Of a stretch of 64,000 bases of DNA, positions 1 to 62,026 are shown piece after piece. The notes beneath the pieces are model-generated. The model saw only the letters and a program-made list of their open reading frames with translations, was not told the DNA's origin and did no database searches. The stretch spans positions 1,974 to 65,973 of the forward strand of contig JBAYIT010000005.1 in NCBI GenBank assembly GCA_041665485.1. Reading direction: 5' to 3'. The DNA comes from Candidatus Shapirobacteria bacterium. GTDB taxonomy: Bacteria; Patescibacteriota; Microgenomatia; UBA12405. A program made the translations under genes and the position numbers. The first letter of the stretch is position 1; every line of letters starts with the position of its first letter.

Positions 1-1939
1 AACCGAAACTGTCGGTGGTGCCACCAATTTGGCCACGGCGGGAAGAAAGATCACCAATAACTGTGCCTAAGAATTCCGAGGGAGTGGCCACCTCGAACTT
101 CATGATCGGCTCGAGAATCAAAGGCCTGGCTTGAGCAAAAGCATCTTTAATGGCGTAAGCGCCGGCTAATTTGAAGGCAGCTTCGGAAGAATCAACTTCG
201 TGATAAGTGCCATCATAGACAGTGACTTTAACGTCGGTGGCCGGATAACCGGCAATAATCCCCTTCTGGAGAGTTTCTCTAACCCCTTTCTCAATGGCAG
301 GAATAAAGTTGCTAGGAATAGCTCCACCTTTAACACCGTTGACAAATTCGACACCTTCACCCCTGTTCTTGGGCTCAATTCTGATTTTACAATGACCGTA
401 TTGACCGTGACCGCCGGATTGGTGGATATATTTTCCCTCACCTTCGGCATTGGCCGAAATAGTTTCCCGATAAGCGACTTGAGGAACACCGGTTTTGACA
501 TTAACACCAAATTCGCGCTTGAGACGATCGACAATGATTTCAAGGTAAAGCTCGCCCATACCGGCAATAATGGTTTGACCGGTTTCGTGGTTGTAAGTGA
601 CCTTAAAAGTTGGATCTTCAGTAGTAAGGCGGTTAAGGGCAACGCTCATTTTTTCCTGATCATCGGTAGTACCGGGCTCAATGCTTAGAGAGATAACCGG
701 GTCGGGGAACTGGATGGGAGAAAGAGAGATGGGGTTGGCTTTGTCGCAAAGAGTGTCGCCGGTGACGGATTCTTTAAGACCAATACAGGCGACAATTTCT
801 CCGGCATAACCTTCTTCAATCCCCTCGCGCTTGTCGGCGTGCATCAATAAAAGACGGCCGATACGTTCGGATTTCTGCTTGGTGGGGTTGTAGACCTCAA
901 CACCGGTTTTAACGGTGCCAGAATAGACACGGAGATAAGAGAGGGTGCCAACATGGGCGTCGGACTGGACTTTGAAAATAAGACCGGAAAAGGCATCGTC
1001 TTTTTCGGGACGGCGGGTGATTTTTTCGCCGGTAACAACGTCAAAACCTTCGGTGGGAGGAAGATCGATAGGAGAAGGAAGATAATCAACGATAGCGTCT
1101 AAAATCGGATGAATACCCTTGTTTCGCCAAGCGGCGCCACAGAAAACCGGAAAAAGTTTGCGGTGAATAGTGGCTTGCCTTAGAGCTGATTTCAACTCGG
1201 GAATAGAAATTTCCTGATCGTTTAGGAATTTTTCCATTAGGGCTTCGTCTTCCCCGGCAATTTTTTCCACCATTTGGGCACGGGCCTTGGTGGCAGAATC
1301 AAGATATTCCGGAGTGACATCTTTGACGGTAAACTCGAGACCTTCTTCGTCTTTGTCGTAAATAATCATCTTCATTTCCATTAGATCGATAACACCGGTA
1401 AAATCGTGCTCTTCACCGATGGGCAAGACCATAGGAATGATAGGACAGTGGAGTTTTTGGTTGATGGAATCGAGAGTTTTTTGGAAAGAAGCGCCAACTT
1501 TGTCCATTTTGTTGACAAAAGCCAGGCGGGGAACGCCGTATTTGTCGGCCTGACGCCAGACGGTTTCGGATTGGGCCTGAACACCGGCATTGCCATCGAA
1601 AATCATGATAGCGCCATCCAAGACACGCAAAGATCGCTCGACTTCGGCGGTGAAATCGACGTGGCCGGGGGTGTCGATGATATTGATACGAATGTCTTTC
1701 CAAAAGGTGGTAATACAGGCAGATTGAATGGTGATGCCCCGCTCGCGCTCCTGATCCATGGTGTCGGTGGTGGTGGTGCCCTCATCGACGGAGCCAATTT
1801 TGTGGATTTTACCGGTATAAAAGAGGATGCGCTCGGTGGTGGTGGTTTTACCGCCGTCGATATGGGCAATAATGCCGATATTACGGACTTTGTGCATAGG
1901 AACATCACGATTTTTGGAAAGTTTGATTTGATCAGCCAT
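1..1939 (-). CDS. fusA: elongation factor G (partial; C-terminus runs off the window start)
   Basis: Minus-strand frame open from ATG (rc of cat at 1937-1939) to position 1. N-terminus reads MADQIKLSKNRDVPMHKVRNIGIIAHIDGGKTTTTERIL (G1 P-loop), then RGITIQSA and IIDTPGHVDF. Absent from the ORF track because there is no in-window stop. Confidence 0.9.
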   Translation of the reverse strand, partial: MADQIKLSKNRDVPMHKVRNIGIIAHIDGGKTTTTERILFYTGKIHKIGSVDEGTTTTDTMDQERERGITIQSACITTFWKDIRINIIDTPGHVDFTAEVERSLRVLDGAIMIFDGNAGVQAQSETVWRQADKYGVPRLAFVNKMDKVGASFQKTLDSINQKLHCPIIPMVLPIGEEHDFTGVIDLMEMKMIIYDKDEEGLEFTVKDVTPEYLDSATKARAQMVEKIAGEDEALMEKFLNDQEISIPELKSALRQATIHRKLFPVFCGAAWRNKGIHPILDAIVDYLPSPIDLPPTEGFDVVTGEKITRRPEKDDAFSGLIFKVQSDAHVGTLSYLRVYSGTVKTGVEVYNPTKQKSERIGRLLLMHADKREGIEEGYAGEIVACIGLKESVTGDTLCDKANPISLSPIQFPDPVISLSIEPGTTDDQEKMSVALNRLTTEDPTFKVTYNHETGQTIIAGMGELYLEIIVDRLKREFGVNVKTGVPQVAYRETISANAEGEGKYIHQSGGHGQYGHCKIRIEPKNRGEGVEFVNGVKGGAIPSNFIPAIEKGVRETLQKGIIAGYPATDVKVTVYDGTYHEVDSSEAAFKLAGAYAIKDAFAQARPLILEPIMKFEVATPSEFLGTVIGDLSSRRGQIGGTTDSFG

Positions 1940-2002: not shown

Positions 2003-2035
2003 TAAAAAATAAAAAAGATTGCAGGCATGGCCTGC
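2003..2035 (-). terminator. rho-independent terminator candidate after the Bro-N gene, about 65 nt upstream of the fusA start
   Basis: Perfect 6-bp GC stem gcaggc-atg-gcctgc (2021-2035). On the minus strand it is followed by UCUUUUUUAUUUUUU (rc of 2003-2020). Confidence 0.45.
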
Positions 2036-2065
2036 GAATGAAGTTATGATAACACAAGTACAGAA

Positions 2066-2107
2066 AATTTTTAATTTTAAATTTTTAATTTTTAAACAAT
2101 TTTTAAT
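2066..2107. repeat. 42-bp AT-rich dispersed repeat, copy 1 (second copy at 59768-59809, 41/42 identical)
   Basis: aatttttaattttaaatttttaatttttaaacaatttttaat matches 59768-59809 with one mismatch. Both copies sit on the upstream side of a minus-strand core gene (fusA, gatB) at the edge of an accessory insertion. Confidence 0.7.
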
Positions 2108-2398
2108 ATCTAATTTTTAAATACTAAAAAAACAAAACAGGGGTGGGGTGGAGAGGAGGAAAAGGGCTTGATATAATTCGACATGGGAAAATGTGTAATT
2201 AGTATGTCGATGCATGATTGGGGACGTAACATTCAAGAAAGAATAGATATAATTGATGAGGTTAGTGGTTGCAGTTACTTTTCTGCTTGTGGGACTAAGG
2301 GAAACCGTTGCTCGGCTACCAAAGAAGAACAGTGCCCGGCGACAAAATTTCCAGAACTGGCGCAAGAAGTTGAAGCGAGATGGAAAGGAGAAAAGAAT

Positions 2399-3238
2399 CT
2401 ACTTTAACTCTTTTTTCTTATCTTTTGCTTTTGGTAAATAGTTTTCTTTGGAAACGATTGGCCGACCTAATTCTTTTTCGGTTTGTTTTCTGGCATTTCC
2501 AGCAATGTTTCCGCCCCTGTTGGCGACTTTTTTATTTGCCACAAAAGTATCTGGCTTTTCTTGTTGAGAAATTTCTGTGGTCACCCGCTCACCAAGCATG
2601 TTAAAAATTAATTCCAAATCATTCATATGATCACGTAAATTTTGCCGTTTTAATCCCTTTAATCTTTTGTATTCACTGGGTGTTACGCCAAAAGTGGCTT
2701 TGGAAATTTCAGCGGTCAAAATCTCATATTCTTTTTGTTCTTTTATACCTCGTTTTTGCCACTCATCGGTTAATTCTTCGCGAATGGCAATGCCCCGCAT
2801 TCGTCTCTCTATCCAACTTTCGGGGTACCCCTTGAGTTTATAGAGCAGTCTTGTTCTTTTAGTTGCCAATTCCGGATCTTCAATTTCTTGGACTCGCTCA
2901 TAGCCAACTTTTGCTAGCCAGCGTTTGAATGGCTCGGCTTTGGGTGAGGGAATTGATTGAATAATACGAAAAATTCCTTCTGTATTAGCACAATCTGTTT
3001 CGCGCATTTTTCCATCTGGGGCGAGTACCTTCAACCGGTGACAATTTGTCACCACTTCACTTCCTTCGTCTCTTAATCTTTGAGAGAGTTTGTTCCAATA
3101 TTTTCGTGCTGTTTGATCGTCTTGTTGGCTTGTAAGCGCCTGGACGATATCTACCATTGAAAACCACCACTCGTTATTGTAAATAACTTTGCGTATTTCT
3201 TTTTTTTGAAATATGGCTATTTTTGTTGTGATTTCCAT
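2399..3238 (-). CDS. Bro-N domain protein (DinD / phage antirepressor-like)
   Basis: 279 aa. N-terminus has IYNNEWWFSMVDIVQALT, typical of Bro-N/DinD family proteins; C-terminal half is unrelated. Family assignment is from memory of the domain, not a search. Confidence 0.5.
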   Translation of the reverse strand: MEITTKIAIFQKKEIRKVIYNNEWWFSMVDIVQALTSQQDDQTARKYWNKLSQRLRDEGSEVVTNCHRLKVLAPDGKMRETDCANTEGIFRIIQSIPSPKAEPFKRWLAKVGYERVQEIEDPELATKRTRLLYKLKGYPESWIERRMRGIAIREELTDEWQKRGIKEQKEYEILTAEISKATFGVTPSEYKRLKGLKRQNLRDHMNDLELIFNMLGERVTTEISQQEKPDTFVANKKVANRGGNIAGNARKQTEKELGRPIVSKENYLPKAKDKKKELK

Positions 3239-3454
3239 GCTGGTTTAATTGTATTCCATTTCTTTATACGAAAACAGCCATGTTTGCCTCACACTGTGGC
3301 CTTGCGGGTGTTAGTGTCATGAGGGCTTCGAGCCCTTCAAACAGGTTATTTTAACAAAAGACGACTGTAATTTTTCAATCCCTCTAAATCTCCCTTTAAC
3401 CCGTCAGGTGCCGGGCACGGCAATGGGACTTTAATAAAGATGTTGGTATAAAAT

Positions 3455-4648
3455 ATGGAGATGAAGAAAAAAACGGTGGGGATAATTGGGGGAGGGATTG
3501 GGGGGTTGGTGGCGGGATTACGGCTTTGCCAAAAAGGCTATAAAGTAACGATTTTTGAAAAGGGGGAGGTGTTGGGGGGGCTTTTAGCCGGATTTAAGGT
3601 GGAAGGGACAAACTTGGAGCGGGCCTACCACCATATTTTTGAGAGTGACAAAGAGGTAATTGGTTTAATTAAAGAATTGGGATTGTCAGAAAAGATGGTT
3701 TGGAAAAAAGGAACAATCGGGGTGTATTGGCAAAAAGAGATGTGGCCATTTAATGGCCCAGTCGATTTGCTACGATTTGGGGCGATTCCCCTACTGGACC
3801 GGATTCGGATGGGATTAGTTGGCTTGTGGCTTCAAAAAGATGAAAACTACCAAAAATATATAAAAGTTACGGCGGTGAGTTGGATGAAAAAGTGGGTGGG
3901 AAAGGCGGGCTTTGAAGTGGTGTGGGAGCCACTACTAAGGGCCAAATTTGGGGAAGATTACGACAAAGTATCAATGGCCTGGCTCTGGGCCCGGATTCAT
4001 ACCAGAAGCTCTAAACTTGGCTATTTACTGGGCGGGTTTGAGCAAATTACTAATCGGCTGGCGGAAGAAATTAAAAAAGCGGGCGGAGTTATAAAACTAA
4101 AGACAGAAGTAGATTTGGAAAAAGTTAAAAAAGATTTTGATTTAGTGATTAATACGGGGCCGGTTCCGAGAGTAAAGTATTTGGGAGCGGTGATAGTGGC
4201 ATTTACGTCGAGCCAAAATTTAAGCCAGTATTATTGGCACAATATTAATGACCCTCAGTCCCCCTTCCTGGCTTTTATTCAACATACCAATCTTGTTGAT
4301 AAGAGTGAGTACGGCGGGAAACATGTTTATTATATGGGCGCTTACCTTTCTCACGATGACCACAGATTTGAAGCGGATGAAGAAACGATTAAGAAAGATT
4401 TTCACGAATACTTAAAGCGGATTTTCGCCGATTTTGACCCGGGGCAGATTGATCAGGAGTGGGTGTTTAGATTTAAAAATGCCCAGCATGTGGTGACGAC
4501 GGATTACCAAGAAATAATAAATAAGACAAAGAAGACCAATAGGACCGATAAAATAATTAATTTAAATTTTGCCATGATTTTTCCCCAGGACAGAGGAATT
4601 AATTATGCGGTGCGGGAGGCGGAAAGACTAATAAAATGTCGTTTTTAA
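3455..4648 (+). CDS. FAD/NAD(P)-binding oxidoreductase (amine-oxidase / UDP-galactopyranose-mutase-like fold)
   Basis: 397 aa. N-terminal Rossmann dinucleotide motif VGIIGGGIGGLVAG followed by an acidic residue (FEKGEVLGG); substrate unknown. Confidence 0.6.
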   Translation: MEMKKKTVGIIGGGIGGLVAGLRLCQKGYKVTIFEKGEVLGGLLAGFKVEGTNLERAYHHIFESDKEVIGLIKELGLSEKMVWKKGTIGVYWQKEMWPFNGPVDLLRFGAIPLLDRIRMGLVGLWLQKDENYQKYIKVTAVSWMKKWVGKAGFEVVWEPLLRAKFGEDYDKVSMAWLWARIHTRSSKLGYLLGGFEQITNRLAEEIKKAGGVIKLKTEVDLEKVKKDFDLVINTGPVPRVKYLGAVIVAFTSSQNLSQYYWHNINDPQSPFLAFIQHTNLVDKSEYGGKHVYYMGAYLSHDDHRFEADEETIKKDFHEYLKRIFADFDPGQIDQEWVFRFKNAQHVVTTDYQEIINKTKKTNRTDKIINLNFAMIFPQDRGINYAVREAERLIKCRF

Positions 4649-6024
4649 CAATAAAGTTTTTGCTATTTTTTTTGGCAGTTTGGGGGCTGGCAATAATTTT
4701 TCGGCCCTACAAGAGAGCTTATAAATTATTGATAATTGGGGCGAATTTAGTTTTCTACAGTTTTTTTGGAGTAACAGGACTGGTGGTTTTAGTAAGTGAT
4801 GTTTTACTAAATTACGGACTGCTAAAAATTTTGGGGAGACTAAAAGCGAAAAAAAAGGTTTTGGGGGTTGGAGTGGGTTTGAATTTACTGCTTTTGAGCA
4901 GTTATAAATATTTTAATAATCTGACGGGAATAACGGGGATGGAAATAATTGCCCCGATTGGAGTGTCGTTTTTTACTTTTAAAATTATTAGCGTTCTGAT
5001 TGATAGCTACCGACAAAAGATTCAGGTTAACAGTTTGGCCGACTACTTGGCCTATGTTAGCTTTTTTCCCCAAATATCGGCCGGGCCGATTGCCAGGTTT
5101 AAAGAATTTGCCGAGGATATAAACCAAGAGGAGCAAGGAGAGACGGAAAACAACAATATTGGGCCAAGATTTTGGACCTTAATAATTAGTGGCTGGCTTA
5201 AAATGTATTTAATTGGGAGCTACTTGTATGAAATAGTTAATCAAACGATTAATGCACCTCAAAGCTTTGGCCGGGTGGACTTAATTTTGGGCATGATGAG
5301 CTTGAGTTTTTTTATTTTTGCTAATTTTAGTGGCTATTCGGACATTTCGGAGGCGCTGGCGATGGCGCTGGGATTTAGAACGCCAAAGAATTTTAATAAC
5401 CCTTATCGGGCAGTGGGGATTCGAGATTTTTGGCAAAGGTGGCACATGAGCCTATCGACCTGGCTTAAGGACTACCTTTATATACCAATGGGGGGAAACC
5501 GGCGGGGACGGGCATGGAAATATTGCAATTTACTGGTGACCATGGTGGTGGGCGGAATGTGGCACGGAGCGGAAATTAACTTTTTGGTGTGGGGAGGGCT
5601 ACAGGGAGAAATGCTAATGATTGATCATTTTTTGCATGATACGGTGTGGCCAAAATTGAGAGGGGTGGCTAACTGGATAAAAATAGCGGGGAGAGGCGGG
5701 GGGTGGCTGATAACCTTTGGACTGATAAATATTAGTTGGATTATCTTTTATCCAAAAAACATGGAGGCGTCGGTGACCTATTTTGAATACTTGATTAGAC
5801 CAAGAGAGAACCTGGTGGTGCTGGGCTCGGGTGGGCTTCTGACAATCCTAATTTTGGCGGGGATTTTGAGCGTGAGAGGAGATAAATTTGAGGAAATAAT
5901 GGCCAAAACGTTAACTAAAGCCCCGGGAGTGGTAAGATATGTAGTACTAGTAGTGATATTTTATTTGATTATTACCTTCGGACCAAGTAACTATGTGGCT
6001 CCAGCCGCCTACTTTAATTTCTAA
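4636..6024 (+). CDS. MBOAT-family membrane O-acyltransferase (AlgI/DltB-like)
   Basis: 462 aa, multi-pass membrane protein. Has the MBOAT signature RWHMSLSTWLKDYLYIPMGGNRRG with the catalytic His. Confidence 0.85.
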   Translation: MSFLTIKFLLFFLAVWGLAIIFRPYKRAYKLLIIGANLVFYSFFGVTGLVVLVSDVLLNYGLLKILGRLKAKKKVLGVGVGLNLLLLSSYKYFNNLTGITGMEIIAPIGVSFFTFKIISVLIDSYRQKIQVNSLADYLAYVSFFPQISAGPIARFKEFAEDINQEEQGETENNNIGPRFWTLIISGWLKMYLIGSYLYEIVNQTINAPQSFGRVDLILGMMSLSFFIFANFSGYSDISEALAMALGFRTPKNFNNPYRAVGIRDFWQRWHMSLSTWLKDYLYIPMGGNRRGRAWKYCNLLVTMVVGGMWHGAEINFLVWGGLQGEMLMIDHFLHDTVWPKLRGVANWIKIAGRGGGWLITFGLINISWIIFYPKNMEASVTYFEYLIRPRENLVVLGSGGLLTILILAGILSVRGDKFEEIMAKTLTKAPGVVRYVVLVVIFYLIITFGPSNYVAPAAYFNF

Positions 6025-10775: not shown

Positions 10776-11258
10776 TTACCAACGTAAATGGGCGAAGGCT
10801 TTGTTGGCGTCGGCCATTCTTTCGATTTCGGCTCTTTTGGCAACAGAGGTGCCTTCGCTTTTGAGGGCGAGGGTGAGCTCGTTGGCCAATTTCAGACCAA
10901 ATGAGTGGAACTGTTTGTTTGGAAGTTTACGGGAATTGGCAATTAACCACCTGACGGCTAGGGAATCCTGACGATGACGACGGACGGGGGTGGGAACCTG
11001 GTAAACGGCACCACCAATGCGACGGGGGCGGACTTCAATTTTGGGACGGATGTTTTCTAGAGCTTGATCGACCAGAGTGGCGACTTCATCTTTGGGATTT
11101 TCTTTTTTTAAAATCTCTAAAGCTTGATAAACCTGCTTTTGGGCAGAAATTTTCTTACCGCCAATAAGGGAAGCGTTGATGATTTTTTGAACCAAAACAC
11201 TCTGATAGATGGGATCGGGGGTGATTTCCCGGGGTTTGATTGGACCTTTGCGTGACAT
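10776..11258 (-). CDS. rpsG: 30S ribosomal protein S7
   Basis: 160 aa; ends ...AEIERMADANKAFAHLRW, the S7 C-terminal signature. Confidence 0.95.
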   Translation of the reverse strand: MSRKGPIKPREITPDPIYQSVLVQKIINASLIGGKKISAQKQVYQALEILKKENPKDEVATLVDQALENIRPKIEVRPRRIGGAVYQVPTPVRRHRQDSLAVRWLIANSRKLPNKQFHSFGLKLANELTLALKSEGTSVAKRAEIERMADANKAFAHLRW

Positions 11259-11263
11259 ATATA

Positions 11264-11343
11264 AGTTATAAAGTTATAAAGTTTGAAAGTTATAAAGTTT
11301 GATAGTTATAAAGTTATAAAGTTTGAAAGTTATAAAGTTTGGA
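11264..11343. repeat. tandem array of ten 8-bp units AGTT(A/T)(T/G)AA (two copies of a 40-bp higher-order unit) in the rpsL-rpsG spacer
   Basis: agttataa agttataa agtttgaa agttataa agtttgat | agttataa agttataa agtttgaa agttataa agtttgga. Occupies almost the whole intergenic region directly before the rpsG ATG. Confidence 0.85.
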
Positions 11344-11346
11344 GGT

Positions 11347-11769
11347 TTATTTGGTGGCGGGGGCGGGGCGTTTGGCACCGTATTTGCTGCGGGACTGAAG
11401 GCGACCGACAACAGCACCGGCATCATATTTGCCACGAACAACATGATAACGAACACCTGGAAGGTCGCGGACACGACCGCCACGGACAGAAACGATGCCG
11501 TGCTCGGCCAGGTTGTGACCAACACCGGGGATATAAGCGGTGACCAGAGCATGATTGCTCAATCTGACTTTAGCGACTTTACGCAAAGCCGAATGGGGCT
11601 TTTTGGGAGTCATGGTTTTAACAACAGTGACAACGCCCTTTTTGGTGGGGTTGATGGTGTTGCTTAACTGGTTTTTAATGGAGTTGAAATTACGGCGAAG
11701 AGCGGCAGTTCTCTGCTTCTCGGTTCTGTCGCGACGACCTTTTTTGATGAGTTGATTGAATGTTGGCAT
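11347..11769 (-). CDS. rpsL: 30S ribosomal protein S12
   Basis: [13 protein letters not shown] ... [18 protein letters not shown] ... [19 protein letters not shown]. Confidence 0.95.
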
Positions 11770-18936: not shown

Positions 18937-20340
18937 TTAGAGGAATTTGAAAGTGGAGAGGATTTGGTCAAATTCTGGTTTTGAATTGATGACATCATCT
19001 TTATTGCCACCGCTAAAGTTGAAGACATATGTCGATTTTCCATTGTGAATAACATAAACATAGGCAAAAGATGGAGCCTCTTGATTGGAATTTAAGTTGT
19101 CAATGGAAAAGAGAACCGCTGGTTTTTCTCCTAAAGTTAGACTGGCAATCTTTGTGTTTTGCGAATTGTCGGCAAATGAGTCACCAACTTTGGCGGTAAA
19201 AGCAGAAGAATAAGGGTCTAGGGGCATATTATCGTACCAAATACCCTTGTCGACACGAAGTTCTATCTTCTTGTTTGATGAGCTAGAAAAAATAGATTCG
19301 CCACTTAATTTGGGAGTAGACCAGGTGGACGGGTATTTGTATGTAGAATTAAGTGTGCTGTTGGTATATGTCTTCCAATCGGTAGGGATAGAAGATGTGG
19401 TGGAATCGGTAAATTTGAAGGTGGAGAGGATTTGATTGAACAGGTCTTTGTCAATCTCTAGTAAAGATTCTTTCTCTGGTTCAATTTTTGTAGACGAATA
19501 CTTTAATAAACTTAGACATGTTTTACTGTCGATTTGAGTCTCAACTCTGTCTTCGACAAAATAGTTACCATTCATTTGGTCGGAATTAGTGAATCTGACA
19601 GCCTTCTTATTGTCCAGATTAGTGTCTATTAGTTCGGCCGGATTATTACATTGCCTGTTCTGGACAGAAATTGATATTGTTGAAGTAGTTTTAGAAAGTT
19701 GCATCTTCAGTGGTACATTAGCTAGATCTCCTCCACTACCAGTAACGTCTTTAAGGACATATTTTGGAGAATACTTGAAAGAAAAGTTGTATTCTTTGTT
19801 TTCATAGGTTTTCCAATCGGAGGGGATAGTCGAAGAGGAGCAGTCAAGCTCGGTGCAGGTGATGGTGAGGTCGGAACCACAGGTGCAGGTGTTGCAACCA
19901 TCGGCAGCGGGGAAGGTTTCATTGATGTGATAGCTTTTGTCGTTTAATTGGCAAACAGCAGTAGAGGTGGGGGTGGTGGCGACTGATGGAGTTGGAGATT
20001 GGGACGTAGCTGGCGGGGTGGTGGCAGAAGAAATACTAAAATATTGTTTATATAAATTGTAGGCCAGAGTGGCGACAACGCCAAGAAATATAATTAAGGA
20101 AAGAAAAAAGGCGTATTTGAAAATATCAAAACCTGGTTTAACCGGGGCCACAGTGGCAACAGCCTCAACTGGTAGAGGTGGAGGTGTAGGTGTAGTAGTG
20201 GGTGTGGGTGTGGGTGTGGGTGTGGGTGCAGGAGGAGTTGGTGGCGCTGATGGGATAATGATTGGAGTTGGTTCCGGTTCGGTTGTAGTTAACTTAGCAT
20301 AATCGTCGAGCACTTTTTGATAATCTTGGTTTTCATCCAT
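18937..20340 (-). CDS. membrane-anchored surface protein: PT-rich low-complexity N-terminus, TM helix, Cys-rich segment, two copies of the paralogous domain ending in DQILSTFKF
   Basis: 467 aa. PTPTPTPTPTTTPTPPP, TM FFLSLIIFLGVVATLAY, two domains starting S/TDWKTY and ending FNQILSTFKFT and FDQILSTFKFL. Confidence 0.6.
   Translation of the reverse strand: MDENQDYQKVLDDYAKLTTTEPEPTPIIIPSAPPTPPAPTPTPTPTPTTTPTPPPLPVEAVATVAPVKPGFDIFKYAFFLSLIIFLGVVATLAYNLYKQYFSISSATTPPATSQSPTPSVATTPTSTAVCQLNDKSYHINETFPAADGCNTCTCGSDLTITCTELDCSSSTIPSDWKTYENKEYNFSFKYSPKYVLKDVTGSGGDLANVPLKMQLSKTTSTISISVQNRQCNNPAELIDTNLDNKKAVRFTNSDQMNGNYFVEDRVETQIDSKTCLSLLKYSSTKIEPEKESLLEIDKDLFNQILSTFKFTDSTTSSIPTDWKTYTNSTLNSTYKYPSTWSTPKLSGESIFSSSSNKKIELRVDKGIWYDNMPLDPYSSAFTAKVGDSFADNSQNTKIASLTLGEKPAVLFSIDNLNSNQEAPSFAYVYVIHNGKSTYVFNFSGGNKDDVINSKPEFDQILSTFKFL
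20180..20227. repeat. (GTGGGT)n hexanucleotide microsatellite (5 perfect units plus degenerate units) encoding the (PT)n tract
   Basis: ggtgtaggtgtagtagtg then gtgggt x5 at 20198-20227. Confidence 0.8.
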
Positions 20341-20392
20341 AAATTAATATCTCATTTATTGACAGCAGTGTCAATTTGGAATAGGCTAAATT

Positions 20393-20866
20393 ATGATAAA
20401 AATAATCGCTTTGTTTTTTTTATGGATGGCCTTACCGGTGGGGGTAATGGCCGGAGGATTTAATTTAAAATCAATTGGCGAGGTGGATACTTCAGGCAAG
20501 CAAATTAGACAGTGGTGGTACACAGGAACTCAACCAGTTTTACGCGGTGAAGCCAGCCCGGGAGCGACAGTAATGATTACTATCGACAGTACTCCGGTAG
20601 AAATTAATGCCGACAGCTCGGGTAACTGGGATTACGCAGTGCCGACAGCTTTAACTGAAGGCGACCATAAAATTGAACTAACGAGTGGTGGTAGTAACAT
20701 AAATTTTACTTTAACCATAGGGAACGGTAATGTTAATTGGGAGGCAGTCAATAATGATAGTGAAGCATTGCCGGCGGCAGGCAATTCGATGCCAACAGCG
20801 GTGTTGCTGGTTTTGGGACTCATGTTGACGGGAATGGCCGGGGCTCTGGTAAAATCGAGATCGTGA
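20393..20866 (+). CDS. secreted protein with a C-terminal sortase-type sorting signal (LPAAG, hydrophobic segment, KSRS tail)
   Basis: 157 aa. N-terminal signal peptide; C-terminus ...EALPAAGNSMPTAVLLVLGLMLTGMAGALVKSRS. Confidence 0.55.
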   Translation: MIKIIALFFLWMALPVGVMAGGFNLKSIGEVDTSGKQIRQWWYTGTQPVLRGEASPGATVMITIDSTPVEINADSSGNWDYAVPTALTEGDHKIELTSGGSNINFTLTIGNGNVNWEAVNNDSEALPAAGNSMPTAVLLVLGLMLTGMAGALVKSRS

Positions 20867-22881: not shown

Positions 22882-22936
22882 AACGGCCTTGAGATAATAG
22901 CCAAGCCTGAATAGGAGAAATTAAATTTTTAAACAT
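22739..22936 (-). CDS. small zinc-ribbon protein (hypothetical)
   Basis: 65 aa with CVGCG ... CRCG; compatible with mltG if mltG starts at the internal Met. Confidence 0.3.
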   Translation of the reverse strand: MFKNLISPIQAWLLSQGRCVGCGDNLSRGISKVVRTKNTVTCRCGRIFIHDTKKNSYRRALFDEI

Positions 22937-22946
22937 TTTTTATTTA

Positions 22947-26072: not shown

Positions 26073-27830
26073 TTAGGCAACTATTTCAGCATAGATTCGC
26101 CTTTTGCCTGAACCGGCCGATTCCTCTTTGGTAATTTTGAGTTTACCAATCTCGCCGGTGGCAGACACATGGGGGCCAGTGCAAACCTCTTTTGAAAAAG
26201 AGTCGATGGTGTAGACAGAAACTATTTCTGGGTATTTATGGCCAAAAAAGGCCAGAGCGCCCTGATTTTGGGCATCGGTAAATTTCATCTCTTCTCGAGT
26301 GACAGGTAGGTTTTTGGAAATTATTTGGTTGACAATTTTTTCGACTTCTATAATTTGGTCTGGAGTTAATTTTTCTTGATGGCTAAAGTCAAAACGAAGG
26401 CGGTCGGCGGTAATATTGGAACCTGATTGCTCTACATGATTGCCCAAAACTTGGCGCAAGGTGGCATGTAAAAGATGGGTGGCAGTGTGGTATTTGGTAA
26501 TAACTTCGGAGTTATCAGCCAGGCCGGATTTAAATTTCCCAGCCGAAAGAGTTTGGGAAAGTTTGATGTGATCAGATTTATATTTTTCAAATTCGCCTTC
26601 ATCTAAATCGAGATTGTTTTTGTTTAATTCTTCCTTAATTAATTCAAGGGGAAAACCAAAATTTTGATAAAGATCAAAAGCCTCTTTGCCGGTAACTTTG
26701 TGATTTCTTTTGATTAATTTATTTATTTCGTTTAGTCCTTTATCTAACGATTTCCTAAATCGGTTTTCTTCGGCTTCTAGAATTGATAATATTTTGACTT
26801 TGTTCTCATTTAATTCAGGGTAGGTGCCGGCGTAATTGGATTGGTTATCTAAAACAGATTGGCCGATAATTGAACAAATATTTTGTTCAATGCCGAGTAA
26901 TTTGCCATGGCGAATACTGCGGCGGATGAGGCGGCGGAGAACGTAGCCGGCTTCTTTGTTGCCAGGCTCGACTCCGTCGGCGATGATAAAAACGGCGGAG
27001 CGGATGTGGTCGGCAATAATTCGAAATGATTTTTGATAATTTAGATCTTGATAACTTTTCCCCGAAATTTCTTCAATTTTTTTGATAATCGACTGCCAGA
27101 TATCAGTAAGATAATTGTCGGAAAAACCATTGAGGACAGCAATGGTCCGTTCGACTCCCATGCCGGTGTCGATATTGTTTTGAACTAATTTTTCATATTT
27201 ACCCTGATCGTTTTTTAAATATTGAATCAAAACATCATTCCAAATTTCCAACCAATTAGGATTTTTAGGATCAAATACTTTGGGTGGATTATTGTCTTTC
27301 CACCAATAAAACATTTCCGTGTCGGTGCCACAAGGGCCGGTAACTCCAGGTGGCCCCCACCAATTATCAACAAGAAAATTAATTCGTTCCGGGGATAAAC
27401 CTAAATCGAGCCAGAGCTTTTGCGAGACAATGTCTTTTTCAGTGTCGCTATTGCCAGCAAAACAAGTGACAGCCAATTTATCAACAGAAATATTTAGGGT
27501 TTTGGTTAAAAATTCAAAACTCCAGGGAATGGCTTCGGATTTAAAATAGTCGCCCAAAGACCAATTGCCAAGCATTTCAAAAAAAGTGTGGTGATAAGAG
27601 TCGCCGACCTCATCGATGTCCCCTGTCCGAATACATTTCTGAATATTGGTTAGTCTCTTGCCAACCGGGTGAGATTCACCGAGAAAATAAGGAACTAAAG
27701 GCTGAATGCCGGAGGAAGTAAAAAGGGTTGATGGGTCGTTTTCAGGAACTAAAGGAGCGCTGGGGATTTCGACATGGCCCTTTTCGACAAAAAAGGCAAT
27801 GAATTTAGCTTTGAGTTCCGAGGCGGTCAT
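26073..27830 (-). CDS. alaS: alanine--tRNA ligase (short form lacking the C-terminal C-Ala domain)
   Basis: Class II AlaRS catalytic core and editing-domain HxxxH motif (HTATHLLHATL); 585 aa. Confidence 0.9.
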   Translation of the reverse strand: MTASELKAKFIAFFVEKGHVEIPSAPLVPENDPSTLFTSSGIQPLVPYFLGESHPVGKRLTNIQKCIRTGDIDEVGDSYHHTFFEMLGNWSLGDYFKSEAIPWSFEFLTKTLNISVDKLAVTCFAGNSDTEKDIVSQKLWLDLGLSPERINFLVDNWWGPPGVTGPCGTDTEMFYWWKDNNPPKVFDPKNPNWLEIWNDVLIQYLKNDQGKYEKLVQNNIDTGMGVERTIAVLNGFSDNYLTDIWQSIIKKIEEISGKSYQDLNYQKSFRIIADHIRSAVFIIADGVEPGNKEAGYVLRRLIRRSIRHGKLLGIEQNICSIIGQSVLDNQSNYAGTYPELNENKVKILSILEAEENRFRKSLDKGLNEINKLIKRNHKVTGKEAFDLYQNFGFPLELIKEELNKNNLDLDEGEFEKYKSDHIKLSQTLSAGKFKSGLADNSEVITKYHTATHLLHATLRQVLGNHVEQSGSNITADRLRFDFSHQEKLTPDQIIEVEKIVNQIISKNLPVTREEMKFTDAQNQGALAFFGHKYPEIVSVYTIDSFSKEVCTGPHVSATGEIGKLKITKEESAGSGKRRIYAEIVA

Positions 27831-27831
27831 G

Positions 27832-27845
27832 AGGGAATTATAACA
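27832..27845 (-). promoter_or_regulatory. conserved extended -10 motif TGTTATAAT-TCCCTC abutting the alaS ATG (possible leaderless transcript)
   Basis: Minus strand reads tgttataattccctcATG; the same 15-nt motif recurs upstream of rpsO and nusA. Confidence 0.35.
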
Positions 27846-27853
27846 ATTTTCGA

Positions 27854-33998: not shown

Positions 33999-34161
33999 GG
34001 ACGATTTGATTTCGTGGTACCACCTTAGTTACTTCTCTTGGCTTTACACAGGTTGCATCTGGACCAGCTTGTCGCTGTCATCTCCACGGCGGGAAACCGC
34101 TTCATTGATTTGAAGTAATAATATCAGAGTTTTAAAATAAAAACACCTGATATAATTTGAT

Positions 34162-34506
34162 ATGGCAGAAAGTTTTAAGTGGGAAAAATTTAATATTACA
34201 ATGGCAACTAAAGACGAACTAAGTGGTCTAAAATGGTGGACACGTAGGGGACGTGTGCCAAAAGATGGTGGTTCAGACAACTTAACTGGTGGAACTGCAG
34301 AAGTGGCAACAATTATTCGACAACGTGGTCAGGTGGCAAGGATATCTGGAACAGGAGAAGGGGCAAATACCTATCTTGCAGCGCAGGTGGTTTTGGCCCG
34401 ACTTAAGCACCATGAATGGACTGGGGTAAGTTACAGGATGGGTTCTGTCGATGAGGAAGGAGGTATCAAACGGAGAGTTGCTTACTTAAGGCTAAATTTG
34501 GATTGA
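34162..34506 (+). CDS. hypothetical protein in the compositionally distinct islet; preceded by an extended -10 (TGATATAAT) 6 nt before the ATG
   Basis: 114 aa ORF; tgatataat at 34147-34155 then ATG at 34162. Confidence 0.35.
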   Translation: MAESFKWEKFNITMATKDELSGLKWWTRRGRVPKDGGSDNLTGGTAEVATIIRQRGQVARISGTGEGANTYLAAQVVLARLKHHEWTGVSYRMGSVDEEGGIKRRVAYLRLNLD

Positions 34507-41188: not shown

Positions 41189-41220
41189 TATCTCCTCGGG
41201 GGGCGGAGGTCGGCGCGGAA
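41189..41220. repeat. 32-bp direct repeat, left copy (orphan duplicate of the pnp 3' end)
   Basis: tatctcctcggggggcggaggtcggcgcggaa is identical to 42359-42390, which encodes the pnp C-terminus RFRADLRPPRR plus the stop. Confidence 0.85.
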
Positions 41221-41261: not shown

Positions 41262-42350
41262 ATGCCTACTGACAAACTTCCTGAACTGTTTGGAAGAGAA
41301 GGTAATGAGGGTTTTGAGAGAGTCAGACCTTTTTGCTTAGATGTAGCAGATAGAGTAGATGCAGAATTAGCGACAAATAATGGTATTGTAGACCTACCAA
41401 CAATAACGGCATATAGTTATACTCTGTTGCTGGAAGGGGAGTATAGTGAGGGACTTAAAGCGATTTCATATACAAATCAACTTGATGATTATGCTAGAGG
41501 CGTATATGCTTTATCAGAAAAAAATGTTGGTAATGTGGCTGATCTTGGCTCCGAAGATAAGGCTTTATTGGCTTTAGTTCTGTCTATAAATTACTACCGA
41601 ATTGATAATGGCCACAAATATCAACTCAGTCATTTGAAACAGAATGAAGAATATTACCCGGGAAAAGATTTTAGAACTGGACTACAGATGGAAGAGACTT
41701 ACCTGGACCGGATCGGTGGCTGTCTTAGCTCTCTCGGTCTTGACCCAAACAGAACAGCTGATTACATTGCGAAGGCTGATGGCCAAGTACCATTTTCTAA
41801 ATGGCTAGTTCCTGGCGACATTATTGGGTTTGTAGAAGATCCGAGCAAATTTTTAAAGATAGCGCCAGCAAAACAAGAAGAAGTAGCGGTAGGTTTAGTT
41901 ACCCAGGACACAAAAGATACGTTTCCTTCGGTACATTCTCCCTACAGAGATGCAATGAGAAGGGCTATTGACGGATATCAAATAAAAGAAGAACGAGGGC
42001 GAGACCCTAATGTTTTTTTAAGAGAATCGAGGGCGGTAGCCAGAGTTATAAGTAAAAATGCCGATACAGAAACACTAAGACAAACGGGTATATGTTCTGA
42101 TAGCAAATCGATTGGTCGGGCGCTTGGTGATATTCGAAAGAATGGCTTGGTTGTTAACGGGTTGGATCTTGGTGGAGAAGGAAAAAAAAGATTAAGAGAT
42201 TTTCGGAAGGCGATTGTTTACGTTATGGATCCTAGTAGGTTGAAATTAGAAGAGGGAGAAAATCCAGCTGAAATTAGGAGTGTGTTTGAGGAATATTTAA
42301 GAGTACTTGACGAGGTAGGAGCAAAAAAATACAGTAAAGTGATGATTTAA
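41262..42350 (+). CDS. hypothetical protein (cargo of the DR-flanked insertion)
   Basis: 362 aa, no recognisable motif; tgtgatattat 13 nt upstream of the ATG is promoter-like. Confidence 0.5.
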   Translation: MPTDKLPELFGREGNEGFERVRPFCLDVADRVDAELATNNGIVDLPTITAYSYTLLLEGEYSEGLKAISYTNQLDDYARGVYALSEKNVGNVADLGSEDKALLALVLSINYYRIDNGHKYQLSHLKQNEEYYPGKDFRTGLQMEETYLDRIGGCLSSLGLDPNRTADYIAKADGQVPFSKWLVPGDIIGFVEDPSKFLKIAPAKQEEVAVGLVTQDTKDTFPSVHSPYRDAMRRAIDGYQIKEERGRDPNVFLRESRAVARVISKNADTETLRQTGICSDSKSIGRALGDIRKNGLVVNGLDLGGEGKKRLRDFRKAIVYVMDPSRLKLEEGENPAEIRSVFEEYLRVLDEVGAKKYSKVMI

Positions 42351-42357
42351 CCTCTTA

Positions 42358-44547
42358 TTATCTCCTCGGGGGGCGGAGGTCGGCGCGGAAGCGGCCAAAT
42401 TGGGGCCGGGGGCCGAAGTTAGCTTGAGACTCCCGGGGGCCATCGGTTGAACCAGGATGAGCAGATTTAAATTCCGGAGCAGATAACTTTATCTGATGAT
42501 TATCGTTGAAGCCGGAGACACGAACTTTAAGTTTGTCGCCGATTTTCATAATAGTGTTGGGGTCAGATAAAAAGCCACCAGTCATCTCGGAAACGTGAAG
42601 TAGGGCTTCACGGCCGGGAAGGAATTCAACAAAGGCGCCAAAATTTTCAATGCGGGTGACGGTGCCGTCAAACTCTTCGCCAACTTGGACTTCACGAACC
42701 ATCGATTCGATAGCAAAGACGGCTTTGTCAACATTGGCAATATCGGGCGAACAGACGGAAACCCGGCCATCGTCTTCAATGTCAATTTGAACTTGATATC
42801 TCTCCATTAAGGCTTTGATAGTTTTGCCACCACTGCCAACAACTTCGCCAATTTTTTCAACGGGAATGCGGACCATTTTAATTTTGGGGGCAAAAGGGGA
42901 AAGTTCGGCTTTGGGAGCAGTAATGGCTCTGTCCATAACATCAAGAATTTGGAGTCGGGCTTTAGTGGAAGCAACAAAAGTATCCCGAATCATGTCAAGA
43001 GAGAGGCCGGAGCGTTTGATGTCCAGCTGGATGGCAGTAATACCATCCCGAGTACCGGTAATTTTGAAATCCATGTCACCGTGATGATCTTCAATACCGG
43101 CAATGTCGGTTAAAAGCAAATATTTGCCACTGTCGTCGGAAACCATACCAACAGAAATACCGGCAACTTTGTTTTTGATGGGAACACCAGCATCCATTAA
43201 GGATAAAGTTGAACCACAAGTTGAGGCCATCGAAGATGAGCCGTTTTGAGACATAACTTCCGAAGTTAAGGTAATAGTGTAAGGAAACTCATCAACAGAA
43301 GGAATGACTGGCAAAAGAGCTTTTTCGGCCAAAGCTCCGTGGCCAATTTCCCGGCGGCCAGGGCGGCCGAAACGGCCGGTTTGACCGGTAGAAAATGGCG
43401 GAGCGGAGTAATAGTGAATATAGCGCTTAGTAGTTTCTCCTAAAGAATCCTGCAAATATTGTTGTTCGGATAGTGGGCCGAGAGTAGTAATAGTAACCGC
43501 TTGGGTTAAACCGCGTTGGAAAAGAGCCGAGCCATGAGTACAAGGTAAAACGCCGGTTTCAACGGAAACCGGGCGAATTTCGTCAAATCCACGTTTGTCG
43601 TAACGCTGGCCAGCAAGGGTCTGTTGACGGAAATAGCGGTGAATTAACAGGTCGAGAGCTTCCATCAAAAGGGACAGTTTAATTTCGCCTAATTTGATTT
43701 GAGGCTCGTAGGTGGATTCAACTTTTGATCTCAGAGCGATTTCGCCGGCAACATGGGCGCCGTCAGCGCCGGTAGCCATAAAGCTGGCAATATCATCTTT
43801 AAGTAAAGCATCAAGTTCAGAAATAAGACTCTCGGAGGGAGAACCGTTAATAAACTCAATTTTATTTTTACCGTATTTTTTAGCAAATTCAATCAATGAA
43901 GAATTGATTTGATCGCCAGTTTGGAAGGCAGTTTCCATACAAGCAAACATGGTGTCGTTATCAACTATCTGGGCGTCGGCTTCAATCATATTGATACCCT
44001 GACTATCGCGACAAACAAGAAGATCAAGACTGGATTTTAAACTTTCACTAATACTGGGGAATAAAGCCGGCTGGCCGTCAATATGACCAACTCGAACAGC
44101 AGAAACCGGGCCATTGAAAGGAATGTCAGAAATCATTAAAGCAGCGCTGGTGGCCAAAAAGGCGGGAACAACTACGTCGTGGTCTTTATCATTACTTAAA
44201 ACAGTAGCAATGACTTGAACTTCGTTTTTGAAACCAGAGGGAAAAAGAGGGCGGATGGCGCGATCAATAATCCGGCCAAAAAGGACGGCGGTGTCGGAAG
44301 GGCCACCTTCACGTTTAATCCATTTACCACCTTTGATAAAACCACCGGCATAAAGTTTGTCGGAAAATTCAACTGAAAGAGGAAAGTAATCTTTGGTTTC
44401 ATCGAGAGCTCCAAGGGTAACGGTGGCTAAAACAACGGTTTTGCCAAAAGTGGCTAAAACCGAGCCGTTAGCTTGAGGAGCGAGAGTGCCGGTTGAAAGG
44501 GTAACGATTTTGTTCCCAACAGAAATATCAAAGGAGTTGTTGTTCAT
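42358..44547 (-). CDS. pnp: polyribonucleotide nucleotidyltransferase (PNPase)
   Basis: 729 aa; two RNase PH domains, KH and S1 domains; C-terminal basic tail. Confidence 0.95.
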   Translation of the reverse strand: MNNNSFDISVGNKIVTLSTGTLAPQANGSVLATFGKTVVLATVTLGALDETKDYFPLSVEFSDKLYAGGFIKGGKWIKREGGPSDTAVLFGRIIDRAIRPLFPSGFKNEVQVIATVLSNDKDHDVVVPAFLATSAALMISDIPFNGPVSAVRVGHIDGQPALFPSISESLKSSLDLLVCRDSQGINMIEADAQIVDNDTMFACMETAFQTGDQINSSLIEFAKKYGKNKIEFINGSPSESLISELDALLKDDIASFMATGADGAHVAGEIALRSKVESTYEPQIKLGEIKLSLLMEALDLLIHRYFRQQTLAGQRYDKRGFDEIRPVSVETGVLPCTHGSALFQRGLTQAVTITTLGPLSEQQYLQDSLGETTKRYIHYYSAPPFSTGQTGRFGRPGRREIGHGALAEKALLPVIPSVDEFPYTITLTSEVMSQNGSSSMASTCGSTLSLMDAGVPIKNKVAGISVGMVSDDSGKYLLLTDIAGIEDHHGDMDFKITGTRDGITAIQLDIKRSGLSLDMIRDTFVASTKARLQILDVMDRAITAPKAELSPFAPKIKMVRIPVEKIGEVVGSGGKTIKALMERYQVQIDIEDDGRVSVCSPDIANVDKAVFAIESMVREVQVGEEFDGTVTRIENFGAFVEFLPGREALLHVSEMTGGFLSDPNTIMKIGDKLKVRVSGFNDNHQIKLSAPEFKSAHPGSTDGPRESQANFGPRPQFGRFRADLRPPRR

Positions 44548-51638: not shown

Positions 51639-51742
51639 ACTTGTTTAATTAATTTAATAACCAATAACCAAAAAACAATTTCCAAACAATTTCCAATTTT
51701 TCAAATTACAATGACCAAACTGTTTGAAATATTGAATATTGG

Positions 51743-58352: not shown

Positions 58353-59762
58353 TTAGATAAGTAGTTTTTCGAGGATTTGGCGGGCGAGGGCGGGATTGGC
58401 GGAACCAGCGGAAAGTTTCATAAGTTGACCAACTAAAAAGCCGATAGAATTGGGATTCTTTTTGTAGTCGTCGATGGCTTTAGGATTATCGGCTAAAACC
58501 TTTTTGGCTAAGTCTTCGATTTTGCCAGTATCAGAGACTTGAAAAAGATTTTGGTCTTTGGCTAAACTCAAGGGATCAGTGCCAGACTGATAGGAATCAA
58601 TAATTAGTTGTTTGATGGCAGTTGAGGATAATTCGCTTTTGTGATCAAAAAGATTTTTAAAGTGGATGGGATTAATTTTTCCAATATCAATGGAAATAGT
58701 TTTTAATGGTCCGATCATTAAATTGGTAACAAATTTAGCAAATTGAGGGTCAGTAGATTTATCTATGGCTTTTTCAAATGAGGAGGAAAAATCCGAATCT
58801 TCGGCCAAAAGACTGGCGTCGTAGTCGGAAAGGCCAAGTGATTTATATTTGGCAATTTTTTCTTGGGGAAGCTCGGGGATGACGGAGCGAATGGCTTCGA
58901 TATCTTCGTTGGTGAATTCAAAAGGAGGAATGTCGGGCTCGGGGAAATAACGATAGTCGGCACTTCCCTCTTTTTCCCGCTGTAAAAAAGTTTGGTTTTT
59001 ATCGGCATCCCAGCCGCGAGTAGTCTTATTACTAGAATTTTTGGTGATGCCGGTTTGTTGCCAGTCTTGATACTGGCGGTCGATTTCGAATTGAATGGCG
59101 GTCATGACGCCGGTTAGCGAAGCGACGTTTTTGATTTCGGCTAGGGGTGTATAAACAGTCTCTTCCCCTGTCTCAATTTTGAGGTTAACAGTGGGTTCGC
59201 AACGCATACTGCCTTTTTCAATATCAGCATCGGAAATGCTCAAATAACGAATTATTTGCTGAATTTTGTTTAAGTATTTTTTGGCCATTTGAGGGCTTTC
59301 GATATCCGGCTCGGAAACAATTTCAACTAGGGGTACACCGGAGCGATTGTAATCGAGAAGAGTTAGATCGTTAAGATGAACAGATTTACCAGTGTCCTCC
59401 TCCATGTGGACACGATTGATGCGAATGAGGTGGCCATCAATATCGATTTGACCGCCAATAGTAAATGGTTTTTGATATTGGCTAATTTGGTAGCCCTTGG
59501 GAAGATCGGGGTAAAAATAATTTTTGCGCTCAAAAAAAGACTGTTTGTTGACCGAACAGCCTAATGATAGCCCAAGTTTTAAGCACCAGTCGATAGCAGT
59601 TTTGTTGGGGACGGGCAGGGCGCCGGGGAGGCCAAGGCAGACGGGACAGGTGTGAGTGTTGGGGTCAACATGAAAGTGGTCGGCATTACAGTCGCAAAAC
59701 ATTTTGGATTTGGTTTTGAGTTCGACGTGGACTTCAAGACCGATGATGGGAGTAATAACCAT
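58353..59762 (-). CDS. gatB: Asp/Glu-tRNA amidotransferase subunit B
   Basis: PIIGLEVHVELKTKSKMFC N-terminus and C-terminal YqeY-like tail. Confidence 0.93.
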   Translation of the reverse strand: MVITPIIGLEVHVELKTKSKMFCDCNADHFHVDPNTHTCPVCLGLPGALPVPNKTAIDWCLKLGLSLGCSVNKQSFFERKNYFYPDLPKGYQISQYQKPFTIGGQIDIDGHLIRINRVHMEEDTGKSVHLNDLTLLDYNRSGVPLVEIVSEPDIESPQMAKKYLNKIQQIIRYLSISDADIEKGSMRCEPTVNLKIETGEETVYTPLAEIKNVASLTGVMTAIQFEIDRQYQDWQQTGITKNSSNKTTRGWDADKNQTFLQREKEGSADYRYFPEPDIPPFEFTNEDIEAIRSVIPELPQEKIAKYKSLGLSDYDASLLAEDSDFSSSFEKAIDKSTDPQFAKFVTNLMIGPLKTISIDIGKINPIHFKNLFDHKSELSSTAIKQLIIDSYQSGTDPLSLAKDQNLFQVSDTGKIEDLAKKVLADNPKAIDDYKKNPNSIGFLVGQLMKLSAGSANPALARQILEKLLI

Positions 59763-59767
59763 AATTT

Positions 59768-59809
59768 AATTTTTAATTTGAAATTTTTAATTTTTAAACA
59801 ATTTTTAAT
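59768..59809. repeat. 42-bp AT-rich dispersed repeat, copy 2 (overlaps the last codons of the ClbS-like gene and the gatB upstream region)
   Basis: aatttttaatttgaaatttttaatttttaaacaatttttaat. Confidence 0.7.
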
Positions 59810-62005: not shown

Positions 62006-62026
62006 CTTTGGGTTGATTATAACAAC

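Follow-up and report, generated by a model that had tools for sequence, protein, structure and literature searches.

In this study, we found that a 42-nt AT-rich sequence, present twice in the 64,000-nt stretch of DNA analysed here (the window), is the core of a cassette of ~51-57 nt that lies at the starts of housekeeping and tRNA genes in several classes of Patescibacteria (CPR). We regard it, with about even confidence for and against, as a sigma70-type promoter module for leaderless transcripts, normally placed directly 5' of genes. The source of the window is a Candidatus Shapirobacteria (Microgenomates) MAG as judged by GatB and EF-G comparison, and the two copies are found near fusA and directly before gatB.

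The earlier note had reported that 41 of 42 nucleotides are shared between the two sites, and the search of the window and of its shuffles bears this out. AATTTTTAATTTTAAATTTTTAATTTTTAAACAATTTTTAAT occupies 2066-2107 of the plus strand, and the second plus-strand copy, at 59768-59809, differs only by T to G at 59780. No further match with up to three mismatches was found in the 64-kb window, and 100 dinucleotide-preserving shuffles of the window gave none. A 28-nt core is 100% the same in both copies (2080-2107 and 59782-59809), and ungapped similarity extends over 51 nt (2066-2116 and 59768-59818; 90%). The 42 nt contain one G/C, and Tandem Repeats Finder reports a 7-nt AATTTTT periodicity in both copies. 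Since fusA and gatB are both encoded on the minus strand, the functional reading of the 42-mer is its reverse complement, ATTAAAAATTGTTTAAAAATTAAAAATTnnAAATTAAAAATT. In gene orientation the cassette is TTTaAAAATTnaatc-ATTAAAAATTGTTTAAAAATTAAAAATT-nn-AAATTaAAAATT, with the 42-mer as the core of its ~51-57 nt, and the region at about -40 to -60, composed of ATTAAAAATTG and an upstream TTTaAAAATT block, has the A/T-tract composition of an UP element.

The window copies are single units with no partner arm and no significant fold (z -1.5 and +1.9), and on these grounds a hairpin or terminator role was ruled out for them. The G+C-rich hairpin and U-run of an intrinsic terminator are also missing from the cassette, and the terminator scan finds a separate feature at 2035-2021. 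Rfam gave no match on the window at the gathering threshold and none on 1900-2200 at E<=1, and no tRNA was detected by a tRNA scan of the window. A profile search of the window with nhmmer recovered the two copies and weak echoes at 22924-22944, upstream of yceG; the cassette therefore represents a minority class, and the idea that it is the general promoter of every window gene was rejected. Upstream of dnaK, GGAAATTGTTT repeats at 51673-51696 with an 11-nt period resemble a diverged cassette and are not an nhmmer match. The features of the two junctions are as follows.

1 to 1939, minus strand: fusA (EF-G), running off the window, with an extended -10-like TGtTAACTG (1954-1946) 6 nt before its ATG
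2005 to 2035, minus strand: intrinsic terminator-like hairpin GCAGGCcatGCCTGC (hairpin 2035-2021) and T-run, between cassette and fusA
2046 to 2074, minus strand: promoter-like site TTAAAA-17 nt-TGtTATCAT, the -35 inside the last block of the cassette and the -10 in the flank common to relative L053
2066 to 2116, minus strand: fusA-proximal solo cassette copy (42-mer at 2066-2107), in the divergent spacer between fusA and ORF74
2183 to 2407, plus strand: ORF74, Cys-rich, no family match, with TGaTATAAT (2169-2177) and 5 nt before its ATG
2399 to 3238, minus strand: Bro-N domain gene, part of a ~1.5-kb insertion, compared with L054 and L055, that separates the FAD-oxidoreductase gene from fusA
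3455 to 4648, plus strand: FAD-oxidoreductase gene, on the far side of the Bro-N/ORF74 insertion from fusA
58353 to 59762, minus strand: gatB, 469 aa, without a Shine-Dalgarno (SD) site, its ATG 5 nt after the cassette
59768 to 59818, minus strand: gatB-proximal solo cassette copy (42-mer at 59768-59809), with family-like similarity up to 59818
59794 to 60246, minus strand: ORF150, a DinB_2/DUF1706 (ClbS-family) ORF of 150 aa, wedged between gatA and gatB
60243 to 62005, minus strand: gatC (61709-62005) and gatA (60243-61712), with a 4-nt ATGA overlap

The repeat had been described in the earlier note as standing immediately upstream of a conserved gene at both junctions. This is true of gatB, where the last block of the cassette, AAATTAAAAATT (59779-59768), stops 5 nt before the ATG (59762), but not of fusA, where the copy stops 126 nt upstream of the ATG (1939) with an intrinsic terminator between. 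On the minus strand the gat genes are ordered gatC-gatA-ORF150-gatB. The DinB_2 ORF overlaps gatA by 4 nt (ATGA), 31 nt of cassette lie between it and gatB, and its final codons and stop (59796-59794) are themselves encoded by the gatB copy. The region upstream of gatB is less structured than its shuffles (z +1.86).

Profile searches with nhmmer found no cassette copies in the relatives L049-L055. In L049, the closest relative (GatB 87%), gatA, DinB_2, and gatB follow each other with 4-nt ATGA overlaps on both sides and without the 42-mer or the cassette. The order in L050 is gatA-NUDIX-gatB with two ATGA overlaps, gatA and gatB of L052 overlap by ATGA, and in L051 a 109-nt gap between gatA and gatB is filled by a different, G+C-rich repeat (CGTCATTGCGAG). 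Compared with L049, the window has 40-44 AT-rich nt more at the dinB/gatB junction, and the exact placement of these extra bases is ambiguous, as AATTAA on both sides allows two alternative alignments and only AT-rich microhomology is seen. Since L049 contains the DinB_2 insertion without the 42-mer, the repeat was not carried in by the accessory gene, and the cassette was gained separately; its deletion in L049 would be a less parsimonious alternative to gain in the lineage of the window. As an observation apart, the gatA/gatB junction of related Shapirobacteria is a hot spot for small wedged genes (DinB_2/ClbS-like or NUDIX) with ATGA overlaps on both sides (L049 3558-4004; L050 3468-4004; window 59794-60246).

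The fusA junction has a different layout. Toward fusA, the cassette is followed by an 11-nt spacer, TGtTATCAT, the G+C hairpin with its T-run (2035-2005), AT-rich DNA with 7-nt AACTSG repeats, TGtTAACTG, 6 nt, and the ATG; the 7-nt repeats, of the form (C/T)AACT(C)G, occupy 1945-1985. ORF74 points away from fusA and toward the Bro-N gene. According to L054 and L055, rpsG and fusA were already separated in the ancestor of the clade by LytR_C and a divergent FAD-oxidoreductase gene, and compared with these two relatives the window has an extra ~1.5 kb, the Bro-N gene and ORF74, beside fusA. L053 (EF-G 92%) has the TGTTATCAT-hairpin-T-run segment in common with the window, so that the terminator hairpin and the 20 nt preceding it (to 2053) are conserved, and homology between the two picks up again precisely where the cassette ends, with 51 nt absent from L053 and only 15 nt of its left flank in existence. 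Seen by itself, the succession of a TGnTATCAT box and, ~10 nt later, a G+C hairpin with T-run upstream of fusA is ~90% conserved between the window (2005-2053) and L053 (26-75), and L055 (4920-4965) has the same architecture in a different sequence. This unit, which has no Rfam match, might act as an attenuator or insulator or might encode a short RNA. In L053, the closest fusA relative, a phage-integrase-family gene (2666-3484) is located just downstream of fusA.

The genome that received these cassettes seems to start translation without SD sites. None of the 43 window genes has an SD-like motif (GGAG, GAGG, or AGGA at -17 to -4), versus 7% at random positions, and in 18 of the 43 a TAnnnT box ends 4-10 nt ahead of the ATG, versus 11% at random. 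Several window genes have full TTGACA-17-TATAAT sites 5-9 nt before the ATG. In other CPR loci, SD-like motifs are also present at the random rate only (14/203). Because SD sites are missing and -10 boxes lie 5-10 nt before start codons, mRNAs of the source genome would be mostly leaderless, and leaderless mRNAs appear to be the rule in it. In an SD-free genome with -10 boxes at gene starts, the promoter of a non-overlapping cistron is accordingly expected directly upstream of it. In the full-text literature searched, we found no description of leaderless expression in these lineages, nor any prior description of the cassette. TATAAT-like boxes 5-10 nt before start codons can be seen, for example, at 18937-20393, 26073-27850, 34140-34165, and 61980-62030.

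The cassette is distributed far beyond the source genome. A scan of 185,579 species genomes gave 46 exact matches of the 28-mer at 45 loci in 31 other assemblies, and the named sources (Paceibacterota, Moranbacteria, Falkowbacteria, Magasanikbacteria, Campbellbacteria, Zambryskiibacteriota, and Saccharibacteria) all belong to Patescibacteria. A metagenome scan added 41 further contigs with the 28-mer, and viral contigs gave 0 matches, on which ground a phage origin of the cassette was rejected. The full 42-mer, in either window version, is exact in a few other genomes (L004, L007 and L013; L014 and L035), and several MAGs have 4-7 copies, with seven exact cores in DBS2-1.bin63 and six in co232_117. 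Two proteins of co232_117, a MAG labelled 'uncultured Gammaproteobacteria', are identical to Falkowbacteria proteins at NCBI, which suggests that such labels (L002, L016, L017, L022, L045 (CAZZBC01), and other 'binchicken' MAGs) are unreliable and at least partly wrong. Judged from the flanks outside the search pattern, the conserved unit measures ~57 nt. Its last block is retained in these unselected flanks (A38-40 96%, T42 92%), and the best-conserved motif is the TTG in ATTGTTTAAAAATT. Copies within one genome are not closer to each other in their flanks than copies from different classes. The earlier note had considered that the 42-mer might simply turn up at random AT-rich intergenic sites. 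It does occur at ~70 other intergenic sites in CPR genomes that are unrelated to operon interruptions, but these sites are gene starts and not random ones.

The distance between cassette and gene start is narrowly set. In 24 of 73 unique copies, the ATG of a long ORF follows the core by 15-45 nt, with a mode of 21-23 nt, whereas only 2 of the 73 stand in the opposite orientation at such a distance. The resulting interval of 5-10 nt between the last block and the ATG is the spacing of ordinary TATAAT boxes to the ATG in the source genome. Mature tRNA 5' ends are located 21-22 nt after the core in L023 (Arg), L024 (Asp), L085 (Thr), and L059 (Gly), and a fifth copy, in L007, has the same distance to a tRNA that is truncated where the locus is cut. 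Measured from the last block, these tRNA genes start after 6-8 nt (L023 4705-4826; L024 1630-1755; L059; L085; L007), and if this block is the -10, the tRNAs would be transcribed with almost no 5' leader. The protein genes downstream of cassettes are housekeeping genes that recur across lineages: gyrA three times (L035/L078, L084, and L043), NIF3 three times, dnaK, EF-G, atpE, atpF, atpA, secY, infB, dnaG, ruvA, and RNR. Comparison of the gyrA loci of L078 and L084 gives 100% identity for the upstream cassette and ~80% for the flanking spacer, and the distant gyrA locus of L043 retains 40/42 positions. A cassette that stays invariant while its flanks diverge points to purifying selection and speaks against neutral repeat DNA. 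The genes on either side of every short-distance copy are co-directional, and a search for such a copy in a divergent intergenic region, which would require a promoter, gave none.

In other genomes, the cassette often has a second form, in which two copies are paired back-to-back as an AT hairpin (fold z -3 to -4). A T-rich arm is followed by a loop and then by a more degenerate A-rich copy aimed at the next gene, so that the whole spacer between tandem genes is a hairpin of ~110-130 nt. In ~14 of the first 48 copies, the T-rich strand begins at a stop codon or just beyond it and forms the 5' arm of such a hairpin. Over the paired copies, conservation is much stronger in the A-rich, gene-proximal arm than in the other arm. 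The cassette is also found within rRNA genes. A 170-nt hairpin with the full 42-mer replaces the 4-nt loop of a 23S domain I helix in L031 (456-625; z -9.5), and the core is present in a 16S insertion of L093 (about 5900-6000) and a 23S insertion of L033 (about 1500-1560), always co-oriented with the rRNA. In L024, a copy is located between tRNA genes.

As a promoter, the cassette would combine alternating A/T tracts in the UP-element position with a weak TTAAAA/TTTAAA as -35 and, in its last block, an A-rich AAAAAT/AAAATT as -10. UP elements have been described in PMC12641261 as alternating A- and T-tracts upstream of the -35, and transcription as starting about 7 bp after the -10. The start of transcription from the cassette would lie 0-4 nt ahead of the ATG, or of the mature 5' end of a tRNA, and the RNA would be leaderless, as befits SD-free genomes such as the source genome. 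The sequence, distribution, geometry, and presence or absence of the cassette are observed directly; its promoter activity and start position we infer. The last block, which offers AAAAAT/AAAATT, is 5-10 nt before an ATG or tRNA 5' end in 29/73 copies. Both window copies are solo, unpaired cassettes gained in the source lineage. The gatB copy replaced the dinB/gatB ATGA overlap and would give gatB its own start and an independent expression after the loss of coupling. The fusA copy landed 15 nt upstream of the pre-existing TGtTATCAT box and can supply it with a -35 and UP sequence, and the resulting TTAAAA-17-TGtTATCAT, which a consensus scan calls at 9/12, is a possible hybrid promoter. A short transcript from this copy would meet the terminator after ~35 nt. 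Any benefit to fusA itself is doubtful, because the terminator intervenes and fusA has its own -10-like box 6 nt from the ATG. The position of the copy, its derived insertion, and the leaderless, SD-less context favour, for gatB, the portable promoter or UP-like module that the earlier note had envisaged. For fusA, which a terminator and a distinct -10 box part from the repeat, the idea is weakly supported.

Several observations count against the promoter reading. The gatB copy scores 8/12 for TTGACA/TATAAT, the consensus scan does not call it, and only TTAAAA/TTTAAA (4/6) is in register as its -35. The conserved TTG is 4-7 nt too far upstream for a canonical -35; TTGTTT was tried in this role and rejected for want of an acceptable -10 at 16-18 nt. 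The conservation of all ~57 positions across CPR classes is far beyond what a promoter normally needs. To these are added the hairpin arms abutting stop codons, the core in rRNA insertions, the terminator after the fusA copy, and the absence of a short-distance copy from divergent spacers. Because of the weak gatB consensus, the out-of-register TTG, the conservation at every position, the hairpin and rRNA contexts, and the missing divergent-spacer copy, explanations by a mobile element and at the RNA level keep some weight.

It is unlikely, but deserves consideration, that the cassette is a palindromic repeat of mobile or selfish nature (of the MITE, REP, or RPE type, or an IVS-like AT hairpin) of which the window copies are decayed half-elements with an incidental or exapted promoter activity, a view compatible with the promoter reading. 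Such a repeat would account for the presence of copies at both window sites and their absence from relatives, with a sharp boundary that at the fusA site is judged on 15 nt of left flank only, and likewise for the multiple copies in single MAGs (seven in DBS2-1.bin63, six in co232_117), the many copies paired back-to-back as long AT hairpins (z -3 to -4), and the copies in 23S and 16S insertions (L031, L093, and L033) and between tRNA genes (L024). However, no transposase was found near the copies, and neither defined ends nor a clear target-site duplication at the window sites; the window copies do not have two inverted arms, and viral contigs have no matches. The flanks of same-genome copies are also no closer to each other than those of copies from different classes. 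The gene-proximal A-rich arm is better conserved than its partner, unlike terminal inverted repeats, the cassette is kept invariant at orthologous gyrA sites as the flanks diverge, and its orientation and distance are strongly biased toward gene starts. Less probable still is a signal acting in polycistronic transcripts, either as an unstructured A/U-rich translation enhancer for SD-less internal cistrons or as a processing site for an RNase (III/Y/J) that frees leaderless mRNAs, tRNAs, and rRNA fragments. The typical sites are operon-internal (atpE, atpF, atpA, secY, infB, and gatB), the short-distance copies are all between co-directional genes, the gatB upstream region is less structured than shuffles (z +1.86), and paired copies form hairpins, rRNA insertion hairpins being classic RNase III substrates. 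An enhancer of translation, however, leaves the same spacing to tRNA 5' ends unexplained, and it is the primary sequence that is conserved and not the pairing, as the partner arms are degenerate. In addition, ordinary genes have canonical -10 boxes exactly where the last block of the cassette sits, which makes a DNA-level reading simpler.

Two further explanations have little left to recommend them. The earlier note had proposed a common insertion mechanism, with the repeat as an element end or attachment sequence, and both copies do adjoin DNA that is missing from some relatives. But the DinB_2 insertion of L049 and the NUDIX insertion of L050 are without the repeat, each accessory segment has it on one side only, scans of neighbouring ORFs detected no integrase domain, the separation of rpsG and fusA is ancestral, and ~70 unrelated gene starts of other genomes have the same sequence. 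That the repeat is an attachment site, or a scar left by accessory-gene insertion, is therefore very improbable. Chance coincidence of low-complexity AT-rich DNA is favoured by the 7-nt AATTTTT-like units of which the sequence is built, but it is practically negligible in view of 0 matches in 100 shuffles, of fewer than one random 28-mer match expected by our own arithmetic in 596 Gb versus the 46 found, and of the restriction of all matches to one phylum.

Comparison with known systems places the cassette between promoters and intergenic repeats. The rrnB P1 promoter of E. coli is an example of a UP-element-containing sigma70 promoter. Like such promoters, the cassette has A/T tracts at roughly -40 to -65 and a putative -35/-10 pair at 17-18 nt, and precedes translation-related, tRNA, and other housekeeping genes. 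Unlike them, it has weak hexamers (8/12), a tract repeat of 7 nt instead of about 10 nt, and a conserved TTG out of the -35 register, and all of its ~57 positions including the spacer are near-invariant across the phylum. Promoters of leaderless genes were reportedly described by Cortes et al. (2013, cited in PMC12641261) and are known from Mycobacterium, Deinococcus, and archaea. The cassette shares with them a putative -10 box 5-10 nt before the ATG, the lack of a Shine-Dalgarno sequence, and an own start for each non-overlapping cistron, but differs in being one stereotyped sequence at many genes and genomes that is also found before tRNA genes at the same spacing.

Palindromic intergenic repeats with outward promoters or with insertion into RNA genes include the Correia elements of Neisseria, the Rickettsia palindromic elements, and REP/BIME. 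The cassette resembles these in being multi-copy, often palindromic, about 100-130 bp long when paired, presence-polymorphic, and both intergenic and inside rRNA genes. In contrast to them, it is purely A/T, has unequally conserved arms, shows no TA duplication or defined termini, and is common to several classes rather than one genus, and in the window it is present as single arms. RNase III is known to excise intervening sequences from the 23S rRNA of Salmonella, Campylobacter, and Leptospira, and CPR rRNAs also carry insertions. The 170-nt AT hairpin of L031, which contains the 42-mer, similarly lengthens a 23S helix tip, whereas the cassette is mainly at protein-gene and tRNA starts and neither window copy is in an rRNA gene. 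Near-invariance over ~57 nt across a phylum is the unusual property of the cassette, and in other respects it is akin to a UP-type promoter or a palindromic intergenic repeat.

To our knowledge, almost nothing is known about the initiation of transcription and translation in CPR/Patescibacteria. A non-coding sequence of 42-57 nt that is the same across classes at the 5' ends of gyrA, dnaK, fusA, atp genes, secY, and tRNAs would give thousands of uncultured genomes an anchor for the annotation of their gene starts and transcription units. The cassette is a candidate strong promoter for emerging CPR genetic systems and can serve to test how a leaderless genome without SD sites copes with the loss of operon coupling through gene insertion, and its presence inside rRNA insertions ties promoter-like DNA to rRNA expansion hairpins. 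More speculatively, and rather unlikely in its entirety, it might be a phylum-wide, sequence-invariant, and portable 'gene-start cassette' (~57 nt solo, ~110-130 nt as an AT hairpin) that is copied into operon junctions, tRNA clusters, and rRNA helices, and that by itself ends upstream transcription or processing and starts a leaderless RNA at a fixed 6-8 nt downstream. It would then be a modular answer for uncoupled SD-less cistrons, possibly read by a conserved factor besides RNA polymerase.

Other repeats are present in the window. The rpsL-rpsG spacer is filled at 11256-11357 (and 62088-62120) by ~10-12 tandem copies of an 8-bp unit (AGTTATAA/AGTTTGAA), which on the coding strand puts TATAAC 6 nt before the rpsG ATG and is another AT-rich repeat array at a gene start. 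Families were found in neither Pfam nor NCBIfam for the 139-, 255-, and 111-aa ORFs and ORF74, nor for a 362-aa ORF (ORF362; 41262-42350, plus strand). The latter is inserted between a Lon-like AAA gene and pnp (42358-44547, minus strand) and is flanked by an exact 32-nt direct repeat (41189-41220 and 42359-42390), the second copy of which is 1 nt downstream of the pnp stop; from its sequence, this arrangement looks like an insertion with a duplicated target. A second intergenic repeat, the G+C-rich CGTCATTGCGAG, often occurs as inverted pairs, with nine copies at up to two mismatches, five of them exact, a number of nine that 0/100 shuffles reach. Its sites include the following.

Window: 10643, 10719, 41118, 41171, 47741, and 58142
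L051: 3900-3990, in the gap between gatA and gatB
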